Virus record (IMG/VR): IMGVR_UViG_3300044712_000991
Span: 32,001 to 96,000 of that record
From: a virus
Reading direction: 5' to 3' (one strand)
DNA length: 64,000 nucleotides
The translations under genes were made by a program, and so were the position numbers. Below the pieces are notes generated by a model, which did not search any database, was not told where the DNA came from, and saw nothing but the letters and a program-made list of their open reading frames with translations. This document shows positions 16,329-31,470 of the stretch, in pieces (the first letter of the stretch is position 1; each line of letters starts with the position of its first letter).

Positions 16329-17177
16329 CTACCTCCGAATGTCAACGCTACAGCGCCCCATAGAGAGGAACCTGTTGACTTTCCACTTCACATCGCACGC
16401 ATTGCACTCCCCGAACACAGCGCATGGGCGATACTCACTCGTGAGTTGAAGGTCGGGGTCTACAATGGATGCCACGGGGTTCTCCGCACAGTACAGATCG
16501 CGGTGACAACGGTAGATGAGCCCCTCGGGTCCTATGAGAAGTTCGGTGGTCTTGCATGTTACAGACTCCAGTTTCCCACTCAGAGCCTCGGGATACTTGT
16601 AGAACCCAAACAACTGACCCTCATGGGTGCCCAAGAAGTCCTTAATGAAGAAGTACACCTGGGCTTTGCGTGCGAGTTCACTCATCTCGATATTGGCGGA
16701 CATGTTCAGCGGGTGACTGATACCGAAGACACCGATGCTGAACCCCGCATCCTGCAAAATCTGGACTTTCCTGATGGTCGCCTGTGCATCCATCTCCGTA
16801 GGATGATAACTCACACGAATGGCCTTGTATGCTGGGTGCACCATCGAACTGAACCTCGCGGGGGACACCCTGCGAATGAAGGTCTCCGTATCGAACTGGC
16901 AGTTGGTCAGCAAATCGACTCCTATCGAGGGATCAAGGAGATCGAGGAGGTCGTAGAAGTCCTTGCGTACTGTGGGCTCACCCCCACCGATGGTCAACGG
17001 GACGGTACCGAAATCTATACGGTTCAGTCCCTCCGCCAAACGTGCTGCGGGCATCTCCCGCCTCCCCCTGCGGAGAGCCCCGAAGTCATTCATGCAGTAC
17101 TCACATGTGAGATTGCACCGGAGCGATGCGTAGAGCTCCGCGTAGTTAACATCGGGTGGTAGGGTTAGTTTACCCAT
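16329..17177 (-). CDS. Radical SAM enzyme with Cys-rich C-terminal (twitch-like) extension
   Basis: CNLTCEYC CX3CX2C motif, IGGGEPT, C-terminal C...C...CAVFGECNAC; start MGKLTL at 17177. Confidence 0.9.
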   Translation of the reverse strand: MGKLTLPPDVNYAELYASLRCNLTCEYCMNDFGALRRGRREMPAARLAEGLNRIDFGTVPLTIGGGEPTVRKDFYDLLDLLDPSIGVDLLTNCQFDTETFIRRVSPARFSSMVHPAYKAIRVSYHPTEMDAQATIRKVQILQDAGFSIGVFGISHPLNMSANIEMSELARKAQVYFFIKDFLGTHEGQLFGFYKYPEALSGKLESVTCKTTELLIGPEGLIYRCHRDLYCAENPVASIVDPDLQLTSEYRPCAVFGECNACDVKWKVNRFLSMGRCSVDIRR

Positions 17178-18909
17178 GAAGGTACTCCCGTATTTCTTGA
17201 ATCTGCTGTTCGGAGAACTCGGGAGATGCGTACTCCAAGGACTTGCCGAACACGAGTTTGGGGACAATCTTTTGCCCCTTGCCTATACCCACGGAGGTCA
17301 CGCACGCCCCCGACTCTCCAAGTGCACGGTCCACACCACCACGGATATCCGACCGCGACACAATACAATGTACGGCGATGCCGTACGCCTTAGCGACTAG
17401 CAGTTCGTCTCCGAACGGACCATCCACCGCCACGTGATGCCCCGCAAGCCACGTATCCTGTGTTTGCCGAATCATCCCGTAGCCAGCATTGTTCAGAACG
17501 AAGACCTTGATGTTGGTCTTCGCTAGAAGTGCTAGTTCTTGAATATTCATCTGAAAACTACCATCCCCGATAATGCAGATTACCTGCTTATCGGGATTGG
17601 CGTAGTAGGCACCGATGCTCGCCGGAAGAGCGTACCCCATGGGGCTGTTATTGAACGCGGTGAACAACCGCTGTCCCACTGTGACTCGCCAGCCCTGCAT
17701 CGTCCACACGACTGTACACCCCGCATCCGTCACTATCACCGCATCTCTCTTAGCAGCATCCGAAAGGAACTGCATGAACACATACGGATTGACATCCGTC
17801 TCGTGATGATAGTCCTTTGGGCAAATGGGAAGAAGGGAACGCAGTTGTCTCGCCTTGGTTGCCCACGCCGAGAAGTCGCAAACGGTGTCCTTCATGTACA
17901 CCACAAACATGTGGATGGGCGCACGAACAGTGATATCCACATGGTCGGCAATACGCTCCAACTCCGCTTCATCGATATCCACAACGACCTTCTTGGCCTT
18001 CGTAGCAAACGTCGAGAGTTTTGCCCCCACCTCGTGTGTATCTAGGCGTGTGCCAAGACAGATAAGGAGGTCTGCCTCTTGGATAACAAAGTTGGTGGCT
18101 CTCTGTGCGGTGACTCCGAAGTCTCGGAGGTTCAACGGATCAGCATCATCCATGATGTCCAGGGCACCCCATGTGAGTGCCACGGGCATATTCCACTTGC
18201 GTGCAAGCTCGATTACCTCCTGCTCACTGTTGGACAACCTTGCCCCCGCACCCACCACGAGCACCGGCCGCTTCGCCTCACTCAATAGTTCCTGGACTTT
18301 GGCGATTTTTTCGCCCACCGCATCCTCCGACAACTCGGACATCAAGATGCTCATATGATCTGGCTGGAATATTACATCCTCCATCTCCTGCCTCTGAACA
18401 TCATCACAGATGTCGATAAGGACTGGACCTCTGCGACCACTCCAAAGTTCCGTAAGAGCCGCTTCGAACGTTGGTACAACCTCCTCCACTCGCGATATAC
18501 GCCACGCACGCTTCACAACGGGTGTGAAGATACTCACCACATCCGTCTCCTGGAACCCAACCTGCCGCACGCTGTTGTATCGCAGTTGCTCCGCAGGCAC
18601 CTGCCCGGAGATGATGAGTACTGGAATGGAATCAAACCACGAACAGGCAGTACCCGTAAGGAGATTGGTCGCCCCAGGACCCGAGGTCACTACGACCACC
18701 CCGCACTTGTGCTCCGCTATGTTCAACCGAGCATACGCATCGGCCATCATGGCCGCGCCCTGCTCATGATTGGGTGTTACGAGAGCAAGCCCCTCGGTCT
18801 TAGCGATAGAGTCGAAGATGTTCGTGATGGCACCCCCGGTGATACCAAACACGGTGTCCGTCCATTTCTGGAGGTTACGGGCAATACAGTCGCTGACCTT
18901 TACTTTCAT
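17170..18909 (-). CDS. ThDP-dependent enzyme, acetolactate synthase-like (YerE-like carboligase candidate)
   Basis: HEQGAAMMADAY, TSGPGATN, GQV, GFQE, GTRLD, ThDP-binding GDGSFQMNIQEL...VLNNAGYGMI. Confidence 0.93.
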   Translation of the reverse strand: MKVKVSDCIARNLQKWTDTVFGITGGAITNIFDSIAKTEGLALVTPNHEQGAAMMADAYARLNIAEHKCGVVVVTSGPGATNLLTGTACSWFDSIPVLIISGQVPAEQLRYNSVRQVGFQETDVVSIFTPVVKRAWRISRVEEVVPTFEAALTELWSGRRGPVLIDICDDVQRQEMEDVIFQPDHMSILMSELSEDAVGEKIAKVQELLSEAKRPVLVVGAGARLSNSEQEVIELARKWNMPVALTWGALDIMDDADPLNLRDFGVTAQRATNFVIQEADLLICLGTRLDTHEVGAKLSTFATKAKKVVVDIDEAELERIADHVDITVRAPIHMFVVYMKDTVCDFSAWATKARQLRSLLPICPKDYHHETDVNPYVFMQFLSDAAKRDAVIVTDAGCTVVWTMQGWRVTVGQRLFTAFNNSPMGYALPASIGAYYANPDKQVICIIGDGSFQMNIQELALLAKTNIKVFVLNNAGYGMIRQTQDTWLAGHHVAVDGPFGDELLVAKAYGIAVHCIVSRSDIRGGVDRALGESGACVTSVGIGKGQKIVPKLVFGKSLEYASPEFSEQQIQEIREYLHG

Positions 18910-18919
18910 ACTTCCCCTG

Positions 18920-19537
18920 TCAAAGTGCGTTGATGATAGCCACTGTAGCCGGAGTGACCTCAAAGAACACTACCGCCGATCCACCGACATGCAGGATGTC
19001 CATTTGCTTACTCAGCCCGTCGATAAATACATCCACTCCTGGATTGGAGTTAAGGTAGTCATGGTAGGCTATGATCTTCGCACCCAACTTCACCGCGAGT
19101 TTTGTGTCGATCTTGACGTTCTCAGCGTCATGATTACCATCAATGAACACCATGTCGTACACCTCGTTACCGCGAGGCACATACTCAGAGGTATCTGCCT
19201 TCTCTAGCACGATGGGCGTGATGCCCACAAAGTACTTCCCATACCTATCGAGATTGGAATGATATCCGGCCCCTCCACCAACAAAGTCCTGGCAGATGTC
19301 TATGGACTTCTGTCTGTGCAGGTCGGAGTTCAACCAGAAACACAGTGATCCGTAACCCTCCCACGTACCTATCTCACACAGGGAGTGCACATTGTGGTTG
19401 TGGATAATCCACAGGATGGCCGCATAGTCGTTCACGATGTTCGGAAAATGCGGACCGTAGGTGTTCACAAAGCGGGTCAAAAAGTGCACGACCTGCATGC
19501 GTTCAGATTCATAACAGGGAGCTACTGGGCGTATCAT
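18920..19537 (-). CDS. Class I SAM-dependent methyltransferase (Methyltransf_24-like)
   Basis: CEIGTWEG, YDMVFIDGNHD, IIAYHDY. Confidence 0.88.
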   Translation of the reverse strand: MIRPVAPCYESERMQVVHFLTRFVNTYGPHFPNIVNDYAAILWIIHNHNVHSLCEIGTWEGYGSLCFWLNSDLHRQKSIDICQDFVGGGAGYHSNLDRYGKYFVGITPIVLEKADTSEYVPRGNEVYDMVFIDGNHDAENVKIDTKLAVKLGAKIIAYHDYLNSNPGVDVFIDGLSKQMDILHVGGSAVVFFEVTPATVAIINAL

Positions 19538-20640
19538 ATGAAGTTCACTCCCTTCGGCTTGTTCTTGTATGTGTAGGCGAACTCGTTACATTTGTCCTGC
19601 CGACAACAGCCGTGACACATGGTGTGCACATCGAACTCCTTGTCCATGAAGCGCACGATGTCCCAGTAGCGGTCGCTCGACCACATCTCTTCCAGGCTCT
19701 GCTCGTGGAGGTTACCAAAACGGAAGTCCTTCCACTGGGGCTTGCCGCCGAACATGTACCCACAAGGGTACCAGTCACCATTGCCACTCACTTCGGAGAT
19801 GAACGGTATGGAGGAGCAGTTCTCGTACGGCTTCTCCCCCTTCTGCTGAATAAGCGTCCACTTGGGGATGATCTGTGTCTGCTTGGTGCTCAGCGCCTCC
19901 ACCCGTTTGAGCAAATCCACTATCTCCGGCCGGTCGTAGTCGCTCATCTCGAAGTGCACCATCCCACTCTCCCCACCATCGGGCAGAGAACACTGTTTGA
20001 TGACATGGTAGTCCACTCCGACCTCGACCGCGAACTTCGCGAGCGCTTCCAGCTCGTTCGGCATGTCACCCGATGGTACGAACACCGTCTGCAACCCGAT
20101 GTCACAGGTCAGACCGTGCTTGTGCTTGTACTCGACCATCCTACGGATGTTGTCCAAGACCATATTCCGCGCCTTCTCGGACACCCGATGAATGGAGGCG
20201 TATCCCTCGACCGTGAAGGCCGAGATGTTGAAGCGCATCCACTCACAGCTCTCTAGCACGGTCGCAATCCGCTCGTCGGTGTTCAGCAGAATGCCCGAGG
20301 TGGAGATGCTCAGACTCAGCCCTTCCTTCTTACCCACTTGAAGAGCCTCATACAACGCAGGGTTCAGCGTGGGGTCGCCATCTCCGATGAACGCAAGACT
20401 CCTAAGACCTATCCGAGCGCCGGAGCGTACGAGATTCTCCACGAGCGCATCGCGGGACATCACCTCGCCCGTCATGTTCTGGAAAAATCCGTAGCAATAA
20501 ATACAACGCTCGTTGCACTTCTTGGTCAGCCCCGCATCGATATGCACGGGCGGCACGCGTTCCCCCCTGTCCAACCATGCCATGACCCTATCCATGTGCC
20601 ACAGCATCTTGGTATCATCCATCCGCCGTTCTTTATCCAT
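19534..20640 (-). CDS. Radical SAM enzyme with SPASM/twitch domain
   Basis: CNERCIYC, GDGDPTLNP, C-terminal CSS...GDWYPCG...FGNLHEQSLEEMW...CHGCC...C. Confidence 0.92.
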   Translation of the reverse strand: MDKERRMDDTKMLWHMDRVMAWLDRGERVPPVHIDAGLTKKCNERCIYCYGFFQNMTGEVMSRDALVENLVRSGARIGLRSLAFIGDGDPTLNPALYEALQVGKKEGLSLSISTSGILLNTDERIATVLESCEWMRFNISAFTVEGYASIHRVSEKARNMVLDNIRRMVEYKHKHGLTCDIGLQTVFVPSGDMPNELEALAKFAVEVGVDYHVIKQCSLPDGGESGMVHFEMSDYDRPEIVDLLKRVEALSTKQTQIIPKWTLIQQKGEKPYENCSSIPFISEVSGNGDWYPCGYMFGGKPQWKDFRFGNLHEQSLEEMWSSDRYWDIVRFMDKEFDVHTMCHGCCRQDKCNEFAYTYKNKPKGVNFI

Positions 20641-21596
20641 CAAAGAGGCCTCCATATTGGGCTTGTTTTAAGTTCTTCTAGTTCCTGAAGCGTAAGAGGA
20701 TAACTGTACTCCTCGCCAGGGAACACATTAGACTTCACATCGCGTACATAGGCCTCGATGGCCAGTCGAGCGAGTGTCAACAGACCATCCTGCCGGGTAT
20801 CCCGACCAAACGCCCTCACATCCCCCACTTTGGTGACCACCGTGCGGTAGGCATCGATCACTTGCGGAACATAGCACTTGGCAAACCACGGGCGAAACGA
20901 CTGGTAGAAGCCCATCAGATCATGCATGATGACCAACTGCCCATCCACACCCGCTCCCGCCCCGATACCGTAGATGGGAATCCGCAACTGCTTGGCGATG
21001 TTCTCGGCGGGAAGTGTCGGCATAGCCTCTAGAAGGATAGAGAACGCCCCTGCTCGTTCAAGAGCAACGGCATCGGTGAGCGTGTGCTCGAAGGATGCGG
21101 CGGTCTTACCCTGAATCCTATACCCTCCGAAGGAGGCGGCACTCTGCGGGGTGAGACCGAGGTGCCCCATCACGAGAATACCCGCATCCGCAATGGCCTT
21201 CACTCGGGGGCACATCCGTACCCCACCCTCAAGTTTCACAGCATCACATCCCGCTTCCTTCACGAACCTCAGAGCGTTTCGCACAGCATCCTCATCGCTT
21301 ACCTCGTACGCCCCCTGGGGCATATCCCCGATGATGAACGTGTTGGGCGCACCCTTACGCACGGCCTTGGCGAACTGAATCATCTCATCCATCGTCACGG
21401 GATTCGTAGTCTGGTACCCCAACTGCACCATACCGCCCGAGTCCCCCACCAGGATCATATCCACACCCGCTTGCTCAGCGGTGTACGCGAACGGATAGTC
21501 GTAGGCGGTTATCCACGCCACACGCTGCCCCTTCGCCTTCATCGCCTGTAGACCCAAAAGGGTCACCTTCTTCTTCGCGCTACCATCTTCAGCCAT
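20640..21596 (-). CDS. panB: 3-methyl-2-oxobutanoate hydroxymethyltransferase (ketopantoate hydroxymethyltransferase)
   Basis: ITAYDY, ILVGDS, IGDMP, VKLEGG, MGHLGLTPQS, GIGAG, DGQLVIMHDLMG. Confidence 0.93.
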   Translation of the reverse strand: MAEDGSAKKKVTLLGLQAMKAKGQRVAWITAYDYPFAYTAEQAGVDMILVGDSGGMVQLGYQTTNPVTMDEMIQFAKAVRKGAPNTFIIGDMPQGAYEVSDEDAVRNALRFVKEAGCDAVKLEGGVRMCPRVKAIADAGILVMGHLGLTPQSAASFGGYRIQGKTAASFEHTLTDAVALERAGAFSILLEAMPTLPAENIAKQLRIPIYGIGAGAGVDGQLVIMHDLMGFYQSFRPWFAKCYVPQVIDAYRTVVTKVGDVRAFGRDTRQDGLLTLARLAIEAYVRDVKSNVFPGEEYSYPLTLQELEELKTSPIWRPL

Positions 21597-22303
21597 TATG
21601 CACGCTCCTGTTGTTTTGCTGCCTCGATCTTGTCCCACTCGGCGTGCTTGCAGGTGCTCGCCCAGTTCTCAAACGCTGCCTGACCCACGGTGAACTGCTG
21701 CTGAGTAGCCGACCACGAGCTAAACGTCTCATCGGGAGGTGTACCGAAACACGGGTGCCTATGCTCAACCACCACATCAGGTACGTACACAAGGAGTCCC
21801 GCGTGCTCATACTCCCGGAGAACATTATCCACCCAAGTATGAACAAACATTCGGGGGAAATAGTGCCCCACTGTGCGCACGAGTTTGCCCGGGATGACAC
21901 CCGCGTACGGAAGTCCCATGGGGGACAAGATGGCACTCATGCACCACCCGTTATTGCGCGAATTGCATGCCTCGATCATCTTCGCATCCCACTCGGGGGT
22001 CATCACATACTGATCGTCGTTCAAATCGGTGTAGTACGGGACATCGGGGTACGCTTCGCACGCCAAGTAGTTCAAGACTTCCACCATGTTCAGCCGTGGC
22101 CCCACAATGTGCTTCACGCGTGCAAGGACAGGCGCATAGTCCGCTATTCGGGGGTCATCCTCCGCGACGTACACTACTAGTTCGGTGCCCTCACTCTTGT
22201 TGGCCTCCACACTGTCAATCATGTCGTTGAGTTTCTCGGGGCGACCTCTAGAGGAACACATGACAAGTAGGCGAGTGCTATCAGAAAGTACGGGGATACT
22301 CAT
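21596..22303 (-). CDS. Glycosyltransferase, GT-A fold (GT2-like)
   Basis: SRGRPEKL, VYVAEDDP, DLNDD (DxD-like), HTWVD, VEHRHP. Confidence 0.75.
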   Translation of the reverse strand: MSIPVLSDSTRLLVMCSSRGRPEKLNDMIDSVEANKSEGTELVVYVAEDDPRIADYAPVLARVKHIVGPRLNMVEVLNYLACEAYPDVPYYTDLNDDQYVMTPEWDAKMIEACNSRNNGWCMSAILSPMGLPYAGVIPGKLVRTVGHYFPRMFVHTWVDNVLREYEHAGLLVYVPDVVVEHRHPCFGTPPDETFSSWSATQQQFTVGQAAFENWASTCKHAEWDKIEAAKQQERA

Positions 22304-22353: not shown

Positions 22354-23094
22354 CTACCGTGTGACAACCGCAGTGTTGGTAGAAGGAAGAACAAGCCTCT
22401 CTAGGTCGGGGTCTACCCTAGCAATCGCGGCCTCAGGTGATCTCGTGGCTTGCACAAACCTGTCCACGGGTCCTGGACCTCCCCCCTCGCTCTCCATATC
22501 CGCCACACAGTACTGTCGGCGTGCACCGCGCTCCAACAACGCTGCATCCGAACTGATACGGCAAGAGTTCTCGAACAGTACGACCTCCGAAACCACAGGA
22601 ATACCCGAATGCTGTCCTTGCAGATGCACATGGTACTTCCGAGTCTCATCATACCGCAGACCACCCTTGAACAGCCGCATACTCGGACCAATCGGCCACT
22701 TGAAGAAGTGGTACGCATCCTTCACGGTGAACAGGAGCATCATGTCCCAGTAGTTGCTGATAACGAACACCCCGGTCTTCAGCCAGTCCGCGAAGTTGGT
22801 AGTCCACGTCATGTCCGCATCGGGTACAAAGATGTAGTCCCCCGTACACTGGTCGAGACCGTAGTTCATCTGCGCTCTCGTGAAGTCCCATGGGCGTTCG
22901 AACACACGCAACGGCACACGATCCTTATACTCCTCGACCACAGCCAACGTGTTATCCTTGCTCCCACCATCAACCAGCACGACCTCTTTCAAATCGGGGA
23001 AGTTCTGTGCCAGGTGAGCGCAGGATTCAAGATACCACCGGATGGGCTCTTCCTCATCCTGCATGATGGTCATGATGGACACTGATTGTCCCAT
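22354..23094 (-). CDS. Glycosyltransferase family 2
   Basis: VSIMTIMQDEE, VVLVDGGSKDNT, NYGLDQCTGDYIFVPDAD, VHLQ. Confidence 0.9.
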   Translation of the reverse strand: MGQSVSIMTIMQDEEEPIRWYLESCAHLAQNFPDLKEVVLVDGGSKDNTLAVVEEYKDRVPLRVFERPWDFTRAQMNYGLDQCTGDYIFVPDADMTWTTNFADWLKTGVFVISNYWDMMLLFTVKDAYHFFKWPIGPSMRLFKGGLRYDETRKYHVHLQGQHSGIPVVSEVVLFENSCRISSDAALLERGARRQYCVADMESEGGGPGPVDRFVQATRSPEAAIARVDPDLERLVLPSTNTAVVTR

Positions 23095-23097
23095 TGG

Positions 23098-23379
23098 TCA
23101 CCCCGCCTGAGGTATGCTACGCGGAGGTGCGCCGTTCTGCTCCATGGCAGCGACAGCCATACCACCTATCTTGCGCATGATGTCCATGACACGCACAGAT
23201 GCCTGGGGCTCGGACTCCCGAGTCGCGATATGCCTCGCCTGTAGCAGATAGTCCTCGATGAACACCAACCACTCGGTCGGAGAGTGCTTCCCTCCGCTCG
23301 TTGTGGTGGTCTCGTTCCAACGAGCATCCTGATACGCTCGTTCACCATCGATGAGTGCGTAAACTTCCTGACGTTCCAT
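23098..23379 (-). CDS. Small all-helical protein resembling degenerate MazG-like NTP pyrophosphohydrolases
   Basis: IDGERAYQDARW...H...EWLVFIEDY...RKIGGMAVAAME pattern; lacks the canonical EExGE, so the call is tentative. Confidence 0.45.
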   Translation of the reverse strand: MERQEVYALIDGERAYQDARWNETTTTSGGKHSPTEWLVFIEDYLLQARHIATRESEPQASVRVMDIMRKIGGMAVAAMEQNGAPPRSIPQAG

Positions 23380-23399
23380 GCAGACCTCCTGGATATGAT

Positions 23400-23468
23400 A
23401 AATTCAACCCCGAAGCGGCGGGTTCACGAGCTTAGGGTCTCGCTCCCCCACCGCTTGAGGTCGAAGTT
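23400..23468 (-). other. Long imperfect intergenic RNA stem-loop
   Basis: AAGCGGTGGG pairs with CCCGCCGCTT (10 bp, one G-U), inner GAGC/GCTC stem, outer CGACCTC/GGGGTTG extension. Confidence 0.6.
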
Positions 23469-23475
23469 CGATAGA

Positions 23476-24252
23476 CTAGACTTTCTGAAGCGTGGCCCAA
23501 TATCGCTCAGTGCCCACTCCTTCTTCCTCAACCACTACGAATGGTGTGCCTTTGATGGCCTCTCGAATCAGTTCGGGACCCAAACGGCACCCATGCCAAG
23601 TGTTACCCTCTGACGCGCCCCCAATGCCCGTGTAGATATCACGCCCCTGAAGAACGAACACGCCACCAAGTTTCAACACCCGGCAGACATCCCGTACATA
23701 GGACTTGATGACCTCTTCGGAGGATATGTGTTGGAATACGATGTACTCGAAGGCGAAATCCACAGAATCCACAGGGATTGCATCACCCAAGGACATGCCA
23801 TCAATCTCCAAGAACGACCCATACCTGACCTTCCCATCCGTACCGTGCTCCACACGATAGTCAGTCAAGCGTTTCATCGCGATATCGATGAGTTTGCCCG
23901 AAATATCCACACCGTAGTAGCGAACGGCATAGTCTGCGATAAACAGGGACATCCTACCCATACCACAACCGATCTCAAGGATGGTGTCGTGGGGGTAGTC
24001 TTTCAGTCGGGGAACGAACTCGCGCAGCGTATCTCCCAACCCTGAGTCCCGAAGACTTTTCTCGGATGCGTTGTGTTCTGCGCACACGAATAGGCTTGGG
24101 TCTTTGGTCGCACGCAAATCCCAGTCGGACTTGGCGGTCTTCACGAACGTCGTGGGGTCTACCTGGGGCATGTACTCGAAGTTGTTGCAGTGGATAGCCC
24201 GAGCATACTGCACGGGGGACACGGCGCTGCGTTGTTCTTCTGACAGACTCAT
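23476..24252 (-). CDS. Class I SAM-dependent methyltransferase
   Basis: ILEIGCGMGRM motif I, YYGVDISG, VDFAF...VFQHI, RVLKLGGVFV. Confidence 0.92.
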   Translation of the reverse strand: MSLSEEQRSAVSPVQYARAIHCNNFEYMPQVDPTTFVKTAKSDWDLRATKDPSLFVCAEHNASEKSLRDSGLGDTLREFVPRLKDYPHDTILEIGCGMGRMSLFIADYAVRYYGVDISGKLIDIAMKRLTDYRVEHGTDGKVRYGSFLEIDGMSLGDAIPVDSVDFAFEYIVFQHISSEEVIKSYVRDVCRVLKLGGVFVLQGRDIYTGIGGASEGNTWHGCRLGPELIREAIKGTPFVVVEEEGVGTERYWATLQKV

Positions 24253-25115
24253 AGAGGCTCTCCATGTCGAATAGCGAGGTCGGCCTTCACGCGGGACACA
24301 AACTGCTCGAACCCACCATCTTTGAACGCCGTTATGCGTGCGTGCATCACCGCAGGATGGGTGCCCTCAAACTTCTTGATCGTACCGTTCTTCACATGGT
24401 CTGCAAAGAGATACACATAGTCCACCTCGGGATGACCAAGAACCTGTAGCATCTCCTGCATCTTCGGATCGGGGAAGCCGATATCCACATACAACTGCTG
24501 GAAATCCCACTCCTTCTGCCAACCCTTCACGGGGTCTTTGACCTTCCCGTAGTGAAACACCTCAATCGGCGGTCCATCGAGCACATACACATTGGGCACA
24601 TACTGATCGTTGAATGCGAACTGCACCCCATCCCCGATGATCTTCCAGGGTGACCCCCTGCGTACAATACGCACGAGCGTCTCGTAACAGAAGGGAAACG
24701 TCGTCTCGTAGTTGGCCATGAAGTGCGTGTAGTGCACGCGTGCGGCAGACTTCCGAGCACCGATCGCATGCAGTTCCGCGACCGTAGCAAGAAGTGCAGG
24801 CAGACTATCTTCGTGCACCACCTCATCCGCCTGAAGTTGGAACATGTAGTCGGTCGTGAGATGACTTGACGCAAAATTCGCGACATTCTGGATGTCCGTG
24901 AAGTGCTGAACCCAGTTGCGGTGAACGACCTTGATCTTCTCGGGATACAGCGACCTCAACACCTCCACGATCTTCATGGTCTCATCCGTGGAATTGCATT
25001 CGCATATCACAAACTCGTCCACCACATCGATCACGGACTGCACGGACTCCACGAACGGGTAGTCGTAGGCGACCATGTTGTACACATATGTGAATGCTCC
25101 GAGCGTGGGCTTCAT
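24249..25115 (-). CDS. Glycosyltransferase family 2-like
   Basis: PFVESVQS...VICECNSTDET, YMFQLQADEVV, FHYG. Confidence 0.85.
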   Translation of the reverse strand: MKPTLGAFTYVYNMVAYDYPFVESVQSVIDVVDEFVICECNSTDETMKIVEVLRSLYPEKIKVVHRNWVQHFTDIQNVANFASSHLTTDYMFQLQADEVVHEDSLPALLATVAELHAIGARKSAARVHYTHFMANYETTFPFCYETLVRIVRRGSPWKIIGDGVQFAFNDQYVPNVYVLDGPPIEVFHYGKVKDPVKGWQKEWDFQQLYVDIGFPDPKMQEMLQVLGHPEVDYVYLFADHVKNGTIKKFEGTHPAVMHARITAFKDGGFEQFVSRVKADLAIRHGEPL

Positions 25116-25600
25116 ACTGGTACTTCCTTGGGCGTGGTTTCAAGGTTGGTCATCGCAGCATTCACGAACATCTGGACATCTCTGCGCCACAGACCATACC
25201 GGGACACCACGCGACCGAACTCTTCCAGATCGTGGTCAACGCAGGAGTACTTGTCCTTCTCCGCATCGTAGAAGATGTGGCAAAGTTCGTGGAACACAAG
25301 CGCCTCGCGTTCCCGCTCAGTCATCCTGGACCACACCTCGTAGTTGATGGTCATGATGAACTTGTAGGCGGAGGCGAACTCCACCTTCTCGGAACAGTGG
25401 GCAATGTTGCCCAGGTCTTTCATCTTGTCCACGAACAGATAAAGAATCGGAGTGTTCTTCGGAAACGTGAACGTGCCATCCTCACCGATGAGTTTCGTGG
25501 CGATCTCACGAACCTCTACGGCATCCCAGAATTTGTCCTTCTTGGTTTCCTTGGCTGTCTGCTCCGACTTCTGACCCTTCTTCGACGCGGTGTTCATCAC
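25112..25600 (-). CDS. Putative phage metallopeptidase (HExxH)
   Basis: EALVFHELCH, DHDLEEF...VSRYGLW. Confidence 0.75.
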   Translation of the reverse strand: MMNTASKKGQKSEQTAKETKKDKFWDAVEVREIATKLIGEDGTFTFPKNTPILYLFVDKMKDLGNIAHCSEKVEFASAYKFIMTINYEVWSRMTEREREALVFHELCHIFYDAEKDKYSCVDHDLEEFGRVVSRYGLWRRDVQMFVNAAMTNLETTPKEVPV

Positions 25601-25601
25601 T

Positions 25602-25997
25602 TCATCCTTTCAGTGCTTGACCTGCTTCTTGTTTTTTCTGTATGGCGCGTTCAACATCGGCACGCACATTACGCTCCTCGTGCGAGTATCCAGCGACCTT
25701 TTTCTTGAGTTGCTCATTCTTCTCACGAATCTTCTTCCCCGTGGGGACTCCATTGAGTTCCCCATCAATCTTCACATTGTATGTATCATCCTTTTGAGGC
25801 ACCGGGATGAACTTCCGTGGATCATCGAGAAGTTTCCACGCCACATCCTGGGGATGCCTCTCGATCTGGGAGGTCTCGACGTTCACTATGGGGATAAGAT
25901 ACACATTATTCTGCACTAATGCAAAACCACATCCGGGGCAGAGTTGGAGATGGTCTTCCTCAGTGGAAGTACCACATTTTTTGCAAAATCTGTTCAT
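25602..25997 (-). CDS. Zinc-ribbon protein
   Basis: N-terminal CKKC...CPGC; coiled-coil-like C-terminus. Confidence 0.7.
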   Translation of the reverse strand: MNRFCKKCGTSTEEDHLQLCPGCGFALVQNNVYLIPIVNVETSQIERHPQDVAWKLLDDPRKFIPVPQKDDTYNVKIDGELNGVPTGKKIREKNEQLKKKVAGYSHEERNVRADVERAIQKKQEAGQALKG

Positions 25998-26950
25998 TCT
26001 GCCTCCTGATACTTCTCCAACGCAAGTCGCAGTTGCTCCATCGTACGCGACTTTGAGTAGAACTTGGCTGTCCTGAGAGCGCTCTGCCGCATCCGGCGCA
26101 CATCATCCGCATGCATGTCGTTCACAAAGCCCAACATGACCGCCAAGGTCGTATAGTCGCCATCTGTGGGGGCAACCATGCAGTTGTCGCCATGGAACAT
26201 GAAATCCGAACCCCCGCCACCCGTGAAACCCACCACGATACACCCGCATGCCATGGCCTCCAACGGCGGTAGCCCGAAACCCTCAGGGTACGAATGCGCC
26301 ACGAACACCCTAGAGGCTCGCAGATTGTCCGCGAACTCCTGCTCAGGGCAGTCACGGAAGACTTCTATCTCTGTTCTACCATTGGAGTCTATCCATCGGG
26401 GCGCTTCATCTGCACGCATAATCTTCGCACGCGCTCCCTGACCATCCTTACGCTCTTGGAGCATGATAGCCGTACGTCGAGCCTCCCATGGATCGAGCGC
26501 GTCATATGTGGCTCCCTCGGGCAGATGAAACACCCGAGAATCGATGAAAGGGCTGACCATGAACAGCGTGTGCTCCCGAAACTGCGGGAGAGCGTTACGA
26601 TTGAACTCACTGCTCATCCACACATCCAACCCCCTGTAGGGATTGCTCCGGTTGATGAACACCTCACCCTGGACGTACATCACTTTGTTGAAGAACGCAG
26701 ACCGGAAGAGGGGCTCAGGGTCTTCCCAACCGACAATGAGGTCTCTCTTCTTGTCCGCGATGTTCAACATGTGCTGCCATGTAATCTCGGGCGCAGCGTG
26801 CGCAAACCACGAGATGTGGTGCTCCTGCCCATCGGCGTACACGATGTACGCCTCGTGCCCCAACTCGCGTTCAAGCTCTACGAGTTGATACACGACTTTT
26901 ATGCCACCAGAAGGAATAGGGTTGAATGGTAGACAATGAAAGATTTTCAT
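25994..26950 (-). CDS. Glycosyltransferase, GT-B fold (GT4-like)
   Basis: SGGIKVVYQL N-terminus; EGFGLPPLEAMACGC signature. Confidence 0.9.
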   Translation of the reverse strand: MKIFHCLPFNPIPSGGIKVVYQLVELERELGHEAYIVYADGQEHHISWFAHAAPEITWQHMLNIADKKRDLIVGWEDPEPLFRSAFFNKVMYVQGEVFINRSNPYRGLDVWMSSEFNRNALPQFREHTLFMVSPFIDSRVFHLPEGATYDALDPWEARRTAIMLQERKDGQGARAKIMRADEAPRWIDSNGRTEIEVFRDCPEQEFADNLRASRVFVAHSYPEGFGLPPLEAMACGCIVVGFTGGGGSDFMFHGDNCMVAPTDGDYTTLAVMLGFVNDMHADDVRRMRQSALRTAKFYSKSRTMEQLRLALEKYQEAE

Positions 26951-26973
26951 ACTGCGCCTGTGTCGTTGAATTG

Positions 26974-28926
26974 TTAGTCGAACATCACATCCGCTAGAAT
27001 TTTGCCCACGGGGACGATATCCGCTCTACGGGCTCGCTGTAGAGCAATCTGTCCCTTCTGCTTGACAACCTCGGGGTGCTCAAACGCGTAGCGCATGAGG
27101 CTCCGCAGGTGATCGAGTCTCGGCGTGGCCCACACAGACCCGATGTAGTTCCTGAAATACGGAAGCACTTGCAACGGCATCGGTTCAAGATCGAACTCTA
27201 TCGGGAAACCCGAACTTTCGTGAAGAAAGTCCGTCATACCGCTGTAGTTGGTCGCTATCGACGGTATCCCGCACGCACCGGCCTCCACGATGCCGTTCCC
27301 GAAGCCCTCACACCGCGAGGGCATCACAAAACAGTCGTGTGCCGTGTACATCGAGGGCACCACAGTCGGATGGAAGGAGTTGGATGTCACATAGATGGGC
27401 GCATGGGGAAGTTCCTGCCCGCCGAGGATGTTCGTTATCCATGTCTTGAGGTCCATCTGGGCCTGCTGAAGGATGTAGAACAGACTCAACGAGTGCAAGG
27501 AGAGGAACACATCCTCGGAAGGCTTGAATTCGAGGATGAACGCCTTGATAACGGCCTCCAGGTTCTTCCGCTCTCCGTACGCGCTCATCGCGAGGAATCC
27601 GAACTTCCTGCGGTTCTCGATTTCTAGTGGTTTTGCCTGGGGATTGAACAGCGTGGTATCCACGGGATTCGGAACAACCGTGATGTCCGTGCGAACACCA
27701 CGCTCTAGCAAGATGTTCTTGCAGAACGTACTGTTGACGACCACCCTGTCCACATGGTTCAACTGCTCGATCCACCGTTGAGGAGGATTGGTGCCCTCGA
27801 ATGTGGTGTGCGCCACCCGGCGCTTTCCTGGGGGCATCAAGTACTGATGGTCACCCTCCGCAGAACGAAGAATCGCCCTGTTCCAGTAGTCGTGGGGCTT
27901 CAGGATCATCTCCTTGATTTCCCAGTCATCCACGGGCATCGGTTGGTGATACTCCTCGGGAGCAATGGCAACATCCACCCCATTGCGCTTGAGACCCTTG
28001 GCGAGGTTCCTCAGTACGATGGAGAACGACCAGTCCCCGTAGATTTTACCACTGATGAGCGCCTGTCGGTCACTCGTCGGCTTGTATGTGAGAATGTCCG
28101 CATCGTGCTTGGTGTAGAACTTAATCTGATTGAACCTCGACAGACCACTCACCGCCTCGGGGCTCCCGAATGTGGCGTTCGCGGTCTTGTTCTCGTAGTG
28201 CACGGCTCGCGCTGAAGGCTGATAGTACGTCTTGAACCCCCATGTACGCGCCATCGTGCAGTAATCAACCTCCTCGAAGTACGCGGGGTTGAACCGCTCA
28301 TCCATACAAGGCACGACCTTCAAGCACCTGTTCGTGATGTAGAACAGAGCGCCCGTAACATACTCCTGTTCGGTGATTGCGGTCTCGATGCACTCCGTGT
28401 TCGGCACTCCGGCCATCTTGTGCTGCCCCCACCCGAAGACCCCGATGAACGCCCCCGCGTGCTGAATGCGACCATCAGGAAACATCAACCGACCGCCAAT
28501 GACGCCCGCATCGGGTGTCGTCTCGGAAGCCTTAACAAGTTCCTCAATACACTCCGGGAAGAGTTCCATGTCGTTGTTGGTGATGAGAATGTCGGCCTCA
28601 GGGAAGAGGGTTTTCGCAACCGAGATGCCATCGTTGCATCCACCCGCATACCCACGATTGGTTGGGTTCTGCACGACAAACCGAAATTTGATGGCATCGT
28701 ACGCCACATTCAACTTCTTGCCCCCGCAGTCCATATCCTCTTGGTACACCACACCCTTCTTATCAAGCCAAGATGTCTCCAACCACGCGGCTGTATCGTC
28801 CGTGGAGGCATTGTTGACCACCACGACCGCAAAGTCCTTCAAGGACTGCCCTTCCAGGCTCCGGAGGAACATCTTGGTGTAGAAAAGTTGATTCAAAACA
28901 GGTGTGACAACGACGACCTTGACCAT
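26974..28926 (-). CDS. Bifunctional GT2 (N-terminal) plus GT4 (C-terminal) glycosyltransferase
   Basis: VVVVNNASTD, NRGYAGGCN, ITNND, YFEEVDYC; then VMPSRCEGFGNGIVEAGACG. Confidence 0.93.
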   Translation of the reverse strand: MVKVVVVTPVLNQLFYTKMFLRSLEGQSLKDFAVVVVNNASTDDTAAWLETSWLDKKGVVYQEDMDCGGKKLNVAYDAIKFRFVVQNPTNRGYAGGCNDGISVAKTLFPEADILITNNDMELFPECIEELVKASETTPDAGVIGGRLMFPDGRIQHAGAFIGVFGWGQHKMAGVPNTECIETAITEQEYVTGALFYITNRCLKVVPCMDERFNPAYFEEVDYCTMARTWGFKTYYQPSARAVHYENKTANATFGSPEAVSGLSRFNQIKFYTKHDADILTYKPTSDRQALISGKIYGDWSFSIVLRNLAKGLKRNGVDVAIAPEEYHQPMPVDDWEIKEMILKPHDYWNRAILRSAEGDHQYLMPPGKRRVAHTTFEGTNPPQRWIEQLNHVDRVVVNSTFCKNILLERGVRTDITVVPNPVDTTLFNPQAKPLEIENRRKFGFLAMSAYGERKNLEAVIKAFILEFKPSEDVFLSLHSLSLFYILQQAQMDLKTWITNILGGQELPHAPIYVTSNSFHPTVVPSMYTAHDCFVMPSRCEGFGNGIVEAGACGIPSIATNYSGMTDFLHESSGFPIEFDLEPMPLQVLPYFRNYIGSVWATPRLDHLRSLMRYAFEHPEVVKQKGQIALQRARRADIVPVGKILADVMFD

Positions 28927-28929
28927 CGA

Positions 28930-29403
28930 TCAGCCTTCAGGGGTTGTTTCTGGGGGAAACCATGAGTTGGGGATGATACCGTGCGTGGAATCCAAATCAT
29001 ACATAGGGCGCTCTGCTCCCGAGACCTCCCTCTTCCACTGGAACATGGCGTTATCGAGTTTCACGGGTTTCGCGAGTTTGTACGATCGAAGCGTGTTGTC
29101 CCATACCGTGTCAACATCCGTACCTGCAAACGGCAGCCCAGGTAAAAAATTCGGCGCTGAGTAGTACCATCCGTTAGCAAGCACGAGGCAGGTAAATATA
29201 CGACCACCCACGCACTCCTGCACGACCTCCATGATGTGTGGAGCAACACTACATGTAACGGGTATTCTCTGCGTATGGTGCCGGAAACTGCGAAGATGCG
29301 CCACGTACCCATTGGGGAACTCCACGGCGTACGTGTAGGACATCACCTCCCCCGCTCCGTGCAGATAATCCTCGGCTTCCTTTGTTAGCCCAATGAAGTC
29401 CAT
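28930..29403 (-). CDS. Hypothetical protein
   Basis: Start MDFIG overlaps the upstream stop; no motif recognised. Confidence 0.65.
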   Translation of the reverse strand: MDFIGLTKEAEDYLHGAGEVMSYTYAVEFPNGYVAHLRSFRHHTQRIPVTCSVAPHIMEVVQECVGGRIFTCLVLANGWYYSAPNFLPGLPFAGTDVDTVWDNTLRSYKLAKPVKLDNAMFQWKREVSGAERPMYDLDSTHGIIPNSWFPPETTPEG

Positions 29404-30620
29404 TAGACCATCACCCGACCGAGGGTCGCGATGTTCGTCCCTGTGGGTCGTAGCGCGGTCTCCACGGTCTCCACGAGCATCTTGTCCGCCCGCTCCAGCG
29501 ACCATTCGGCGCGGATGACCTCTCCGAACTTCAGCGCCCTCTCGGTCGCCACGGGATACCGCTCGTAGCACCGCTTGAGCCTACTCTTCGCGTGCTCGTA
29601 GTTCGGATTCGCCCACGACTGCCCAGGACCGAGGAGTTCGGGAGCCCACATCGACTGCGGTACGGGTCCCATGTCGTAGTCCACGACCGCCGTGAGATGG
29701 GGGTTCACGTAGTCCATGTGCCCCGAGTAGCCCGTGACGATGATGGGGAGATTGCACGCAGCAGCCTCCGCTAGTGGGCGGAAATACCCCTCACCATGCG
29801 TGAGACTCACGAAGGCCTTGATCTGCGGGTGATGGTACAACCCCGAGAGCTCCTCGTTGGACATCGCGCCGTGTACGAAGTGCACTCTGCCCTTGGCGGC
29901 CGGTCCTAGAAGCTCGGACATGCGCTCCAGGAGAGCATAGCGGTCGGGAGAGGACTGGTTGTGCATGTACGTCTTGACCACGATGCCCACCTCGGGGTTG
30001 TCAATGAACGCATCGAGGACGGTCATGATGGTCGCAGGGATGTTCTTCCTGTCCATGCTGACCTCACCCTGCAACCACTGCCCCACGGTCAAAAAGTTGA
30101 ACTTCGTGGGGAACTCCAACTGCGAGATGGATGGTATTGCAGACACGGGGTCCACATCGTTGAAGACCTTGGTGTCCACCCCCTCGGGCACGACATACAC
30201 GGGGACTTTCACCCCGCAAGTAATGAGGCGATCCCGCACGAACTTCGAGGGCACGATGATGGCGGTCATCTGGTTGCAGTACTCAGCCCACTTCTGTGGA
30301 TACTGCTCCACCTCCAGACCGGCCGTGATCCCGATATTCGCCACAGCGGACACCCTGCGAAACTCGTGGGGGACGCCCACCTGTATCCAGGCGAACTCCA
30401 CGCCCTCTGCGATACGGTTGTTGCACATGAACACCAGTGCATCCGCCACATCCTTCTCGGGCGTACAGGTCGAACTGCCTCCCCACCCCACGGGTACCAC
30501 GGAGATGTTGAAGTTTCCGGAGTTGAACAGGGCCATGACGATGTCCCTGGCATGCGCTCCGTATCCGCTCAGGCTGAACACGGGGGCTTGGATGATGAGA
30601 TTCTTCCGATCGGTCATCAT
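29403..30620 (-). CDS. Glycosyltransferase family 4
   Basis: SGYGAHARDI, IIVPS, VPEGVD, THGEGYFRPLAEAAACN. Confidence 0.9.
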   Translation of the reverse strand: MMTDRKNLIIQAPVFSLSGYGAHARDIVMALFNSGNFNISVVPVGWGGSSTCTPEKDVADALVFMCNNRIAEGVEFAWIQVGVPHEFRRVSAVANIGITAGLEVEQYPQKWAEYCNQMTAIIVPSKFVRDRLITCGVKVPVYVVPEGVDTKVFNDVDPVSAIPSISQLEFPTKFNFLTVGQWLQGEVSMDRKNIPATIMTVLDAFIDNPEVGIVVKTYMHNQSSPDRYALLERMSELLGPAAKGRVHFVHGAMSNEELSGLYHHPQIKAFVSLTHGEGYFRPLAEAAACNLPIIVTGYSGHMDYVNPHLTAVVDYDMGPVPQSMWAPELLGPGQSWANPNYEHAKSRLKRCYERYPVATERALKFGEVIRAEWSLERADKMLVETVETALRPTGTNIATLGRVMV

Positions 30621-30940
30621 AACGGGGATACTCCTATAGCTTGGTATGGTTGAATAGAAATGTCACACTCTTCGATGTAATTCAGTACGAGGGGAGTCCG
30701 CGATGACCACGGGTCTCCCGGGCGCACGGTTTTTTCATGCTCGGTGCCACCAAAACGCACCTTGCGGGTGGCGTGGGTCAGATGGATACCAGTCCACGCC
30801 ATACCCTGGTTGCCATCCTCATAGAGGATAGGCTCGACCCCATCCGACAAAATCAGACCGATGAACCCCGATGAACAAGCAGCAATGGCATACTTGCGTG
30901 GTGGTCTCACCACGGTCTCCACATCCTTCTGGATGCTCAT
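30617..30940 (-). CDS. Hypothetical protein
   Basis: 107 aa ORF coupled on both sides. Confidence 0.65.
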   Translation of the reverse strand: MSIQKDVETVVRPPRKYAIAACSSGFIGLILSDGVEPILYEDGNQGMAWTGIHLTHATRKVRFGGTEHEKTVRPGDPWSSRTPLVLNYIEECDISIQPYQAIGVSPL

Positions 30941-31290
30941 CAGTTTCGTCCCTTCATACGCTGTGCGACCTTCGCGTAACTCTTTCCTTCCCCATCGGGA
31001 TGCACGAGCGTCACGACGTTCGTGGGCTTACCGAGAGCGAAGGCCATGCCGAGATCGAAATGGCTTCCCTTGCTCTCCACATCCCATATGACATGTACCT
31101 CATCCGCCGCCCTCATGGAATCCAAGTGCTCCACGCAGATGTTGTACCCCGTTGGATCGCCCTGATAGACATCGCGTACCGGGTTGTGCACCGAGTGCCC
31201 CTCGGCCTCTAGAGAGGCGACATAGAGGTCAATCATGCGCTGTACATCGGGCGCAACCCCCCGTACTGGACATATCAGATGAATACGCAT
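30940..31290 (-). CDS. Nucleoside 2-deoxyribosyltransferase / N-glycosidase superfamily protein
   Basis: IHLICP, VHNP, AADEV, GSHFDLGMAFALGKP (Asp at the usual catalytic Glu position). Confidence 0.75.
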   Translation of the reverse strand: MRIHLICPVRGVAPDVQRMIDLYVASLEAEGHSVHNPVRDVYQGDPTGYNICVEHLDSMRAADEVHVIWDVESKGSHFDLGMAFALGKPTNVVTLVHPDGEGKSYAKVAQRMKGRN

Positions 31291-31297
31291 TCGTGCC

Positions 31298-31468
31298 TCA
31301 TGTAGTTTGTTTTGCGAACATCGAGCGCCACAGCCGTTTTACCGCCCGCGCAACACCCCAACCTTCTAAGCACAGCAAGAGCATGAGGACTCCCCCAAAT
31401 ACTAACGCTATCCAGAAGAGAAACCTCCATTCATCTCCCGCCTTGGTGTTGCCCAGGTCTTCCATCAT
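31298..31468 (-). CDS. Small single-pass membrane protein
   Basis: 57 aa with hydrophobic FLFWIALVFGGVLMLLLCL segment; follows an AGGAG-type RBS. Confidence 0.5.
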   Translation of the reverse strand: MMEDLGNTKAGDEWRFLFWIALVFGGVLMLLLCLEGWGVARAVKRLWRSMFAKQTT

Positions 31469-31470
31469 AC

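Follow-up and report, generated by a model that had tools for sequence, protein, structure and literature searches.

What pathway is encoded by a run of radical S-adenosylmethionine (SAM), thiamine diphosphate (ThDP) and PanB-type genes in a viral genome? The genes lie in a window of 64,000 nucleotides, by which we mean the whole stretch of DNA that was analysed (positions 32,001 to 96,000 of the IMG/VR virus record IMGVR_UViG_3300044712_000991). The original prediction, made from the sequence without database searches, had taken five of them to be a possible branched-sugar cassette. Our comparison with related loci suggests that six genes, at 16329-22303, are an operon by which the phage would make an acyl-branched (C-branched) sugar, in a modified form of the 'unifying scheme' published for such sugars, and we give this reading about an even chance of being right. 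That scheme starts with a gamma-hydroxy 2-oxo acid, the product of an aldolase, which a YerE-like enzyme joins to CDP-3,6-dideoxy-4-keto-glucose, leaving a reductase to complete the branch (Steitz et al. 2022, PMC9306805). The scheme was described for erwiniose, caryophyllose and gastriose (ErwE/ErwI/ErwF; MMAR_2331-2333; MyGE/MygI/MygF), and ErwE takes 4-hydroxy-2-oxobutanoate, not pyruvate (PMC9306805). Such clusters contain an aldolase, a ThDP enzyme, a reductase and a glycosyltransferase (GT), sometimes with a SAM-dependent methyltransferase, and transamination is the other route to functionalised 2-oxo acids (PMC9306805).

The six genes of the window cassette are as follows.

21596-22303, minus strand: GT-A fold glycosyltransferase, 235 amino acids (aa), DXD motif D96-D97-H, sixth member of the cassette
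20640-21596, minus strand: PanB-like hydroxymethyltransferase of the 'QG' subfamily, 318 aa (PF02548, E 3e-94)
19534-20655, minus strand: radical SAM enzyme with a SPASM domain, 373 aa (PF04055 and PF13186)
18920-19537, minus strand: class I SAM-dependent methyltransferase (Methyltransf_24, hereafter MT24), 205 aa (PF13578, E 1.3e-7)
17170-18909, minus strand: three-domain ThDP-dependent carboligase, AHAS/YerE-like, 579 aa (TPP_enzyme_N/M/C)
16329-17177, minus strand: small radical SAM enzyme with a C-terminal twitch/SPASM-type Cys motif, 282 aa (PF04055, E 1e-9)

All open reading frames of the cassette region are on the minus strand. Families were assigned to the window proteins with Pfam and with NCBIfam and its curated cut-offs, and the two agree on the five families predicted originally; the proposed membership was nevertheless incomplete, as the GT-A gene makes a sixth. 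Gene starts were fixed from an 80%-identical homologue and from the junction sequences. A longer TTG frame of the ThDP gene, to 18963, finds no support in that homologue (P0001), and the small radical SAM gene starts with the ATG at 17177, not with the TTG at 17267. With these starts, the GT-A and PanB genes overlap by 1 nt (TAATG), the PanB and radical SAM/SPASM genes by 16 nt, the radical SAM/SPASM and MT24 genes by 4 nt, and the ThDP and small radical SAM genes by 8 nt, while gaps of 10 nt and 5 nt separate MT24 from ThDP and the small radical SAM gene from a sigma-factor gene, much as the original prediction of stop-start joining had it. The cassette genes are real, intact and translationally coupled. 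A promoter and terminator scan found no signal inside the block above shuffle expectation. Because of this and of the tight overlaps and gaps, the block reads as one operon that continues into the sigma-factor gene and a class II ribonucleotide reductase (RNR) gene.

The record to which the window belongs is a 194,278-bp virus record, 100% complete by CheckV, and the window encodes a baseplate wedge subunit, a tail sheath and a phage metallopeptidase. The window is DNA of a large myovirus-type phage and not a bacterial lipopolysaccharide (LPS) locus, so that the premise of an LPS locus does not hold.

The ThDP enzyme scores 357 bits against TIGR00118, the model of biosynthetic acetohydroxyacid synthase (AHAS), with a cut-off of 538.35, and it is also far below the cut-offs of the other AHAS models. 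Its catalytic residues H66-E67-Q68 and G466-D467-G468...N492 (GDG...NN) are invariant in its family. In place of the AHAS motifs RFDDR and QWQ it has RLDTH and QTQ (within MIRQTQ), which are invariant in 16 family members; the AHAS controls for the motif comparison (n = 4) have RFDDR and QWQ or QQQ. From AHAS structures, we take the Arg of RFDDR and the Trp of QWQ to lie in the binding site for the 2-oxo-acid acceptor. The 194-kb record contains no gene for the regulatory subunit IlvH (PF10369), a point that the original prediction had left to be checked, nor for IlvC (PF07991), IlvD (PF00920) or PanC. Since the enzyme is below every AHAS cut-off, has its acceptor Arg and Trp replaced and comes without IlvH, IlvC and IlvD, we conclude from sequence that it is not a biosynthetic acetolactate synthase.

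A profile of the ThDP family, compared with the PDB, scored 457.7 bits with JanthE, 425 bits with 5ahk, which is presumably PpYerE, 420 bits with E. coli AHAS I and 377-380 bits with eukaryotic AHAS. JanthE is a characterised YerE-like enzyme (PMC12188165) with the structure 8rph, and a structure of PpYerE exists (review PMC12247030). The window enzyme shares with YerE of Yersinia pseudotuberculosis and YerE-like enzymes the three-domain AHAS-like architecture, the catalytic Glu and the GDG ThDP motif, and, where AHAS has Q-W-Q, it has the same M-I-[KR]-x-T-Q stretch as JanthE. It differs from them at the AHAS Arg position, which is His here, Pro in JanthE and still Arg in PpYerE.

Scanning IMG/VR with the single ThDP sequence gave no match until an alignment served as the query; the family loci recovered comprise 64 cellular and 13 viral ones. 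Relatives with 42-47% identity make up a large family of DPANN archaea, Omnitrophota, Planctomycetota, SAR11, Patescibacteria, Dehalococcoidia and others. We counted the neighbours encoded within 10 kb of the ThDP gene at 79 family loci. Dehydratases or epimerases of nucleoside diphosphate (NDP) sugars of the short-chain dehydrogenase/reductase (SDR) family occurred at 59 loci, radical SAM/SPASM enzymes at 54, PfkB/SIS sugar-phosphate enzymes at 37, class I/II aminotransferases at 32, small radical SAM enzymes at 25, methyltransferases at 24, DegT proteins at 14 and NTP-transferases at 11, and flippases and GTs were also among the neighbours. The SDR counts and the top score of JanthE favour the sugar branching around a YerE-type carboligase that had been proposed originally, and from family and context we infer that the ThDP enzyme is a sugar-branching enzyme. 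Members of the ThDP family are found at sugar loci across phages, DPANN archaea and bacteria of many phyla. A tblastn search of INPHARED with the ThDP and PanB sequences found no cultured relative; the only matches were bacterial AHAS and PanB, ~30-40% identical, in records that were contaminated or contained host DNA. The panB of one such match, 'Microcystis phage MaAM05', adjoins panC and sufBCD.

The window PanB scores 276.5 bits against TIGR00222, the model of the ketopantoate enzyme, above its cut-off of 207.55, and it keeps the metal-binding and acid/base residues (the D-S, D, K-x-E, H and E positions). Beside the two metal-binding Asp residues, however, GDSLGM is changed to GDSGGM and DLPFM to DMPQG, and 29 aa are inserted near the C-terminus. 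This signature, by which we define the PanB-QG subfamily, was present in 120 of the 120 closest database relatives, which are 65-88% identical (relatives across phyla 65-77%) and come from several phyla, with Marinimicrobia, Falkowbacteria and Bacteroidota among the cellular members named by NCBI; canonical PanB is only ~40% identical to the window protein. No other panB-like gene is present in the 194-kb record.

Unlike ketopantoate panB, PanB-QG genes are never beside panC and are usually beside ThDP and sugar genes. A metagenome scan yielded 80 PanB-QG loci, with panC at none of them; among the 33 assessable loci, flanked by 2 kb or more on each side, 19 had a ThDP gene within 1.5 kb of PanB-QG. 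In all 12 of the 12 IMG/VR contigs with PanB-QG (L095-L106), the gene immediately upstream encodes a ThDP carboligase, which either scores 437 bits with JanthE vs 262 bits with AHAS or has PpYerE-like motifs. The same contigs encode a GT2, an RmlD-like SDR, RfbH (CDP-6-deoxy-4-hexulose 3-dehydrase; 471 bits vs a cut-off of 423) and a dTDP-glucose-type 4,6-dehydratase, and they hold all other elements of the unifying scheme, with PanB in the place of the aldolase. Their cassettes resemble that of the window in being phage-encoded and in combining a PanB of the same subfamily (60-68% identity) with a YerE-type carboligase and a GT. They are the reverse of it in having the classical RfbH, 4,6-dehydratase and RmlD-like reductase and no radical SAM enzyme, and their ThDP enzymes are clearly JanthE- or PpYerE-like, whereas that of the window belongs to another clade. 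In cells, PanB adjoins ThDP genes in Bacteriovoracales, Nanoarchaeota, Patescibacteria and Elusimicrobia genomes; in two tiny genomes the ThDP-adjacent copy is the only panB, and the Elusimicrobia copy is a divergent paralogue that coexists with a canonical one.

PanB chemistry joins the one-carbon unit of methylene-tetrahydrofolate (methylene-THF) to C3 of a 2-oxo acid. It yields 4-hydroxy-2-oxo acids, so that its product class fits the donor of the unifying scheme. Because the catalytic set is kept and because PanB-QG has a fixed YerE-type partner in phage loci with RfbH, 4,6-dehydratase and reductase genes, PanB most likely stands in for the aldolase that supplies the 2-oxo-acid donor. This assignment takes the place of the hydroxymethylation of a sugar that the original prediction had assigned to it.

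Two side observations concern PanB-QG. In Patescibacteria (L059:4692-6518), PanB and a C-terminal class I methyltransferase form one 608-aa frame directly downstream of ThDP; kinship of the window MT24 with this methyltransferase domain was considered and rejected, as the two proved unrelated on comparison. At most of the metagenome loci where PanB-QG lacks a ThDP neighbour, a 420-aa protein is encoded nearby, with HpcH/HpaI aldolases in some; this conserved protein (L175:8959-10221 and homologues in 8 metagenome loci) directly follows PanB-QG and has no Pfam or NCBIfam match.

For the 373-aa radical SAM/SPASM enzyme, the best NCBIfam matches are far under their cut-offs. Several members of the ThDP family are ThDP-radical SAM/SPASM fusions, and residues 12-373 of the window enzyme align end to end with the C-terminal half of one of them, the 964-aa P0021 (E 8e-49). 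The radical SAM/SPASM enzyme therefore appears to be functionally coupled to the ThDP enzyme. A search for long fused forms of radical SAM/SPASM gave only one intein-bearing form and one with an uncharacterised extension. P0242 (677 aa), a 43%-identical relative of the radical SAM/SPASM enzyme, contains an intein, with Hint, LAGLIDADG and intein-splicing domains.

The small radical SAM enzyme has its CX3CX2C motif at C21/C25/C28 and, in its C-terminal part, a motif of seven Cys (C208-X10-G-X4-C224, C230, C252, C258, C261 and C276) that is mostly invariant among 19 homologues. Pfam did not detect a SPASM domain in it, but the Cys motif is of the twitch/SPASM type. Its AlphaFold2 (AF2) model has a mean confidence (pLDDT) of 90, and Foldseek matched it to SPASM/twitch-family folds only, with template modelling (TM) scores of ~0.5. 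The fold matches of the radical SAM enzymes were SuiB, anSME, SkfB and BtrN, with TM scores for BtrN (0.43) and SpeY (0.35) below those of peptide maturases and MoaA. No sequence relative of radical SAM/SPASM, small radical SAM or MT24 was found in the PDB. BtrN and SpeY, which are twitch dehydrogenases, and DesII and AprD4 are radical SAM enzymes that convert sugar alcohols or diols to ketones or deoxy-ketones. The window enzymes resemble these and BlsE in the CX3CX2C core and the C-terminal auxiliary-cluster Cys motif, and the small one is about the size of BtrN. A keto-sugar role of the pair is suggested because it replaces the classical enzymes in related loci and because one of the two is fused to ThDP elsewhere; the pair may thus oxidise a sugar hydroxyl in the manner of BtrN, as had been proposed.

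The GT-A gene has no Pfam match. It matches phrog_14945 'glycosyltransferase' (E 1.3e-19), its ESM Atlas neighbours are phage GT2-like clusters, and its AF2 model (pLDDT 90) is matched by Foldseek to the fucosyltransferase WrtF, AvpGT and SpsA at E 1e-8 to 1e-9. The N-D-D-H motif is invariant, and the gene adjoins the module in L003, L004, L006, L015-L017, L019 and L020. On the basis of the model and this context, we assign it as a GT-A glycosyltransferase and a member of the cassette; it is probably the transferase for the cassette product. MT24 has no relative in NCBIfam or PHROG.

The order GT-A-PanB-radical SAM/SPASM-MT24-ThDP-radical SAM is kept in two other phage contigs, L003 and L004, with ThDP identities of 80% and 54%, and the grouping is therefore not due to chance. 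In L004, an HNH/RRXRR homing-type endonuclease gene (L004:8769-9743) is inserted between MT24 and ThDP in an otherwise colinear cassette. The trio of ThDP, radical SAM/SPASM and small radical SAM genes is present in 18 of the 18 phage loci of the lineage, the small enzyme accompanying the other two in every one. More distant phage contigs keep ThDP and both radical SAM genes, and usually GT-A too, with PanB and MT24 swapped for a class I/II aminotransferase (L005, L013 and L015-L020) or a B12-radical SAM enzyme (L006) and with extra genes such as GDP-mannose 4,6-dehydratase (L019) and RmlB/C/D-like genes (L005). Beside ThDP, PanB (17 loci) and AspAT-type aminotransferases (25 loci) never occur together (n = 67 loci), an exclusion that suggests interchangeable slots for the supply of a 2-oxo acid. 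Likewise, no viral locus (n = 30) combines the radical SAM pair, present at 18, with the DegT/RfbH set, present at 12, which suggests that the pair stands in for that set.

Two groups of these relatives call for separate mention. In L008-L012 (marine IMG/VR; for example L009:5716-8517), three paralogous tail-collar-domain fibre genes and a gene for a 1,357-aa protein are directly upstream of the radical SAM/SPASM-ThDP-radical SAM module, which hints at tail-fibre glycosylation. L074 (CAZNER010000008.1), filed as a Candidatus Saccharibacteria metagenome-assembled genome, is colinear with L015-L019 (GroEL-like gene, ThDP, both radical SAM genes, GT-A and GT4) and is probably a phage contig that was binned into a bacterial genome.

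Taken together, the families, their partners and the gene swaps point to the following pathway. PanB would use methylene-THF to hydroxymethylate C3 of a host 2-oxo acid, for which pyruvate, 2-oxobutanoate and 2-oxoisovalerate are candidates, giving a 4-hydroxy-2-oxo acid of the same kind that aldolases supply to ErwE and MMAR_2332. As its family, context and active-site motifs suggest, the ThDP enzyme would decarboxylate this donor and add the acyl-anion equivalent to a keto group of a nucleotide sugar, producing a tertiary alcohol with an acyl side chain. The keto-sugar acceptor would be made or processed from an ordinary host NDP-sugar by the two radical SAM enzymes, by radical dehydrogenation or dehydration; the gene replacement and the fusion suggest that they take over from the 4,6-dehydratase, the RfbH-type 3-dehydrase and the reductase. 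The ThDP-radical SAM fusion would fit the hand-over of a labile keto intermediate. MT24 may then methylate the branch or the sugar, and GT-A may transfer the finished sugar to an acceptor built up by the neighbouring soluble GTs. Our first guess for the glycan acceptor is a virion protein, because the GTs are all soluble and because the module follows tail-fibre genes in L008-L012.

The proposed pathway agrees with the clusters of the unifying scheme in having a C-C-forming enzyme capable of making a gamma-hydroxy-2-oxo acid, an AHAS-like ThDP carboligase and a dedicated GT in a glycan locus, and with the R. palustris cluster in having a SAM methyltransferase. It departs from them in that the C-C-forming enzyme is a methylene-THF hydroxymethyltransferase of the PanB type and not an aldolase of the HpcH/DmpG type, and in that two SPASM/twitch radical SAM enzymes are found instead of a 4,6-dehydratase, an RfbH-type 3-dehydrase and a YerF-type reductase. 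The ThDP enzyme, in addition, is of a separate 'RLDTH' family, and the genes are phage-encoded.

Several results weigh against this pathway. As a single sequence, the window ThDP enzyme scores about equally with E. coli AHAS I (256 bits), 5ahk (252 bits) and JanthE (240 bits), and its pairwise identity to the YerE-like side (JanthE ~34%) and the AHAS side is 34% vs 32%. The phylogeny that the original prediction had called for split it from AHAS in FastTree with a support of 0.52 only, in a tree built without the YpYerE, ErwE and MMAR_2332 sequences; we did not use this split as evidence. Because of the near-equal scores and this support, we use the neutral label of an AHAS/YerE-like carboligase. 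The folds of the radical SAM enzymes do not separate BtrN and SpeY from SuiB, anSME, MoaA and viperin (TM ~0.35-0.5 throughout), and neither sequence nor fold shows a specific affinity to the sugar enzymes. The pocket changes of PanB (L to G, F to Q and M to G) would suit a substrate larger or more polar than pyruvate, and 13 of the 33 assessable PanB-QG loci have no ThDP neighbour. The loci in which the exclusions were counted are related, so that these counts are descriptive and not independent tests. Finally, the 194-kb record lacks NDP-sugar 4,6-dehydratase (PF16363) and nucleotidyltransferase (PF00483) genes, the cassette phage lacks a YerF-type reductase, and tblastn with 1,252 proteins of related glycan loci found no DegT or SDR relatives in the record, its matches being limited to the cassette, the GTs, RNR, the sigma factor and the MazZ-like gene. 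As genes for the synthesis or activation of sugars are missing from the phage, the sugar substrate proposed here is deduced from relatives only.

This last point, together with the resemblance of both radical SAM enzymes to peptide-modifying SPASM enzymes as much as to sugar enzymes, could mean that the product is not a sugar at all. SPASM enzymes are often maturases of ribosomally synthesized and post-translationally modified peptides. The cassette might then make an acyloin or amino-alcohol substituent, a cofactor-like molecule or a modified peptide, attached to glycans or independent of them, and the AspAT-type aminotransferases and HpcH aldolases near relatives do act on free acids. The GT-A gene, however, heads the cassette with a 1-base overlap with PanB, the cassette is always embedded among GTs, its family context is overwhelmingly one of nucleotide-sugar genes, and no precursor-peptide candidate was noticed; we consider a non-sugar product unlikely. 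The loss of three bulky hydrophobic residues from the PanB pocket could also be read in favour of a sugar acid as its substrate: PanB would hydroxymethylate C3 of 2-keto-3-deoxy ulosonic acids of the Kdo or nonulosonic type, which are alpha-keto acids with an enolisable C3, before decarboxylation and ligation by the ThDP enzyme. MyGE and MMAR_2332 have been proposed to use polyhydroxylated C6-C8 2-oxo acids (PMC9306805), the Bacteriovoracales locus L035 joins PanB, ThDP and radical SAM/SPASM with NeuB, a CMP-type cytidylyltransferase and SIS+HAD, and CTP_transf_3 fusions among the ESM Atlas structural neighbours of radical SAM/SPASM provide a lead, though only that. The phage nevertheless has none of NeuB, KdsA and a CMP-transferase, and the 12 phage contigs with PanB and ThDP carry a 3,6-dideoxyhexose set (RfbH and 4,6-dehydratase) without ulosonic-acid genes, which makes such a substrate improbable in our estimate.

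The destination of the product can be questioned as well. With the same chemistry, the sugar or acyl group could end up on the phage DNA as a hypermodification. The cassette lies between DNA ligase/RecU and dUTPase/RNR genes in L004 and L006 and abuts the sigma factor and class II RNR in the window, a MazZ-like dATP/dGTP diphosphohydrolase is encoded in the GT island and again near the module in L020, and the island proteins are all soluble. Known handles that would link a sugar to a base are nevertheless missing, as the 194-kb record has no thymidylate-synthase-type base hydroxymethylase, PurZ or TGT/DpdA; the cellular relatives are in ordinary surface-glycan loci with Wzx/MurJ-type flippases, and the module adjoins tail-fibre genes in L008-L012. 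We rate a DNA target as low as the sugar-acid substrate. Z-genome, 7-deazaguanine and hydroxymethyl-pyrimidine types of DNA modification were each rejected, the PurZ, TGT and thymidylate-synthase families all being absent. The plainest alternative is that of ordinary auxiliary metabolic genes (AMGs), in which an acetolactate synthase and a ketopantoate hydroxymethyltransferase would boost branched-chain amino acid and CoA synthesis of the host. It can draw on the equivalog score and intact catalytic residues of PanB and on E. coli AHAS I as the top single-sequence PDB match of the ThDP enzyme. This alternative is very improbable in view of the 357 vs 538 bits with TIGR00118, the replaced acceptor residues, the missing Ilv and PanC genes, the absence of PanC from all 80 PanB-QG loci and the interleaving of the two genes with radical SAM, methyltransferase and GT genes through stop-start overlaps.

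The acyl-branched sugar pathway thus remains our preferred reading: the comparison supports a branched-sugar pathway in general and gives PanB another role than the one first proposed, while the roles of the radical SAM enzymes are inferred. Upstream of the cassette lies a GT island, in which no multi-span membrane protein was found and which contains the following genes.

22354-33221, minus strand: soluble GTs (GT2, GT2, GT1, GT2+GT4 fusion, GT4 and GT1), by Pfam
22354-33221, minus strand (same island): also a methyltransferase, the phage metallopeptidase and the MazZ-like diphosphohydrolase, by Pfam

One island gene (26974-28926) encodes a two-headed glycosyltransferase, a single 650-aa protein with an N-terminal GT2 and a C-terminal GT4/GT1 part. 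The MazZ-like gene is at 32703-33221 and encodes the N-terminal domain of a MazZ-like dATP/dGTP diphosphohydrolase (PF18909); its homologue at L020:5137-5664 is 5 kb from the ThDP/radical SAM module of that phage contig.

Few bacterial LPS structures are known to contain C-branched sugars with long acyl side chains, and the logic of their pathways has been unified only recently. Searches of the open literature, which did not cover the in-silico survey of Krug et al. 2024, found no phage-encoded YerE-type pathway, no PanB in such a pathway and no radical SAM version of it; that survey is said to comprise more than 200 YerE-like clusters. What is new here is the radical SAM version of the proposed PanB and ThDP pathway. 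Going further, we tentatively suggest that the radical SAM pair turns a common host NDP-sugar directly into the keto-sugar acceptor and hands this to the ThDP carboligase. This would be a radical route to C-branched sugars, independent of NAD and pyridoxamine phosphate (PMP) and widespread in DPANN archaea, Omnitrophota, Planctomycetota and SAR11, which large phages may use to decorate virions or DNA, the side chain being supplied by a PanB diverted to this end. We regard this extension as possible but doubtful.

The trio of radical SAM and ThDP genes represents a large uncharacterised set across uncultured archaea and bacteria, and the compact six-gene cassette makes it directly testable. Carboligases of this type are also of interest for biocatalysis, since they make tertiary alcohols from functionalised donors. 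PanB-QG passes the TIGR00222 equivalog cut-off, so automatic annotation and viral AMG counts label these glycan-locus genes as pantothenate biosynthesis. If the proposed pathway is correct, a widespread and highly conserved PanB subfamily, tallied under vitamin B5 synthesis by automatic pipelines and virome surveys, would be a glycan enzyme. A radical SAM pair, sometimes fused to the branching enzyme, would replace the dehydratase, 3-dehydrase and reductase steps, and large phages would carry a branched-sugar pathway by which virions or other phage-directed targets may be glycosylated with exotic sugars.

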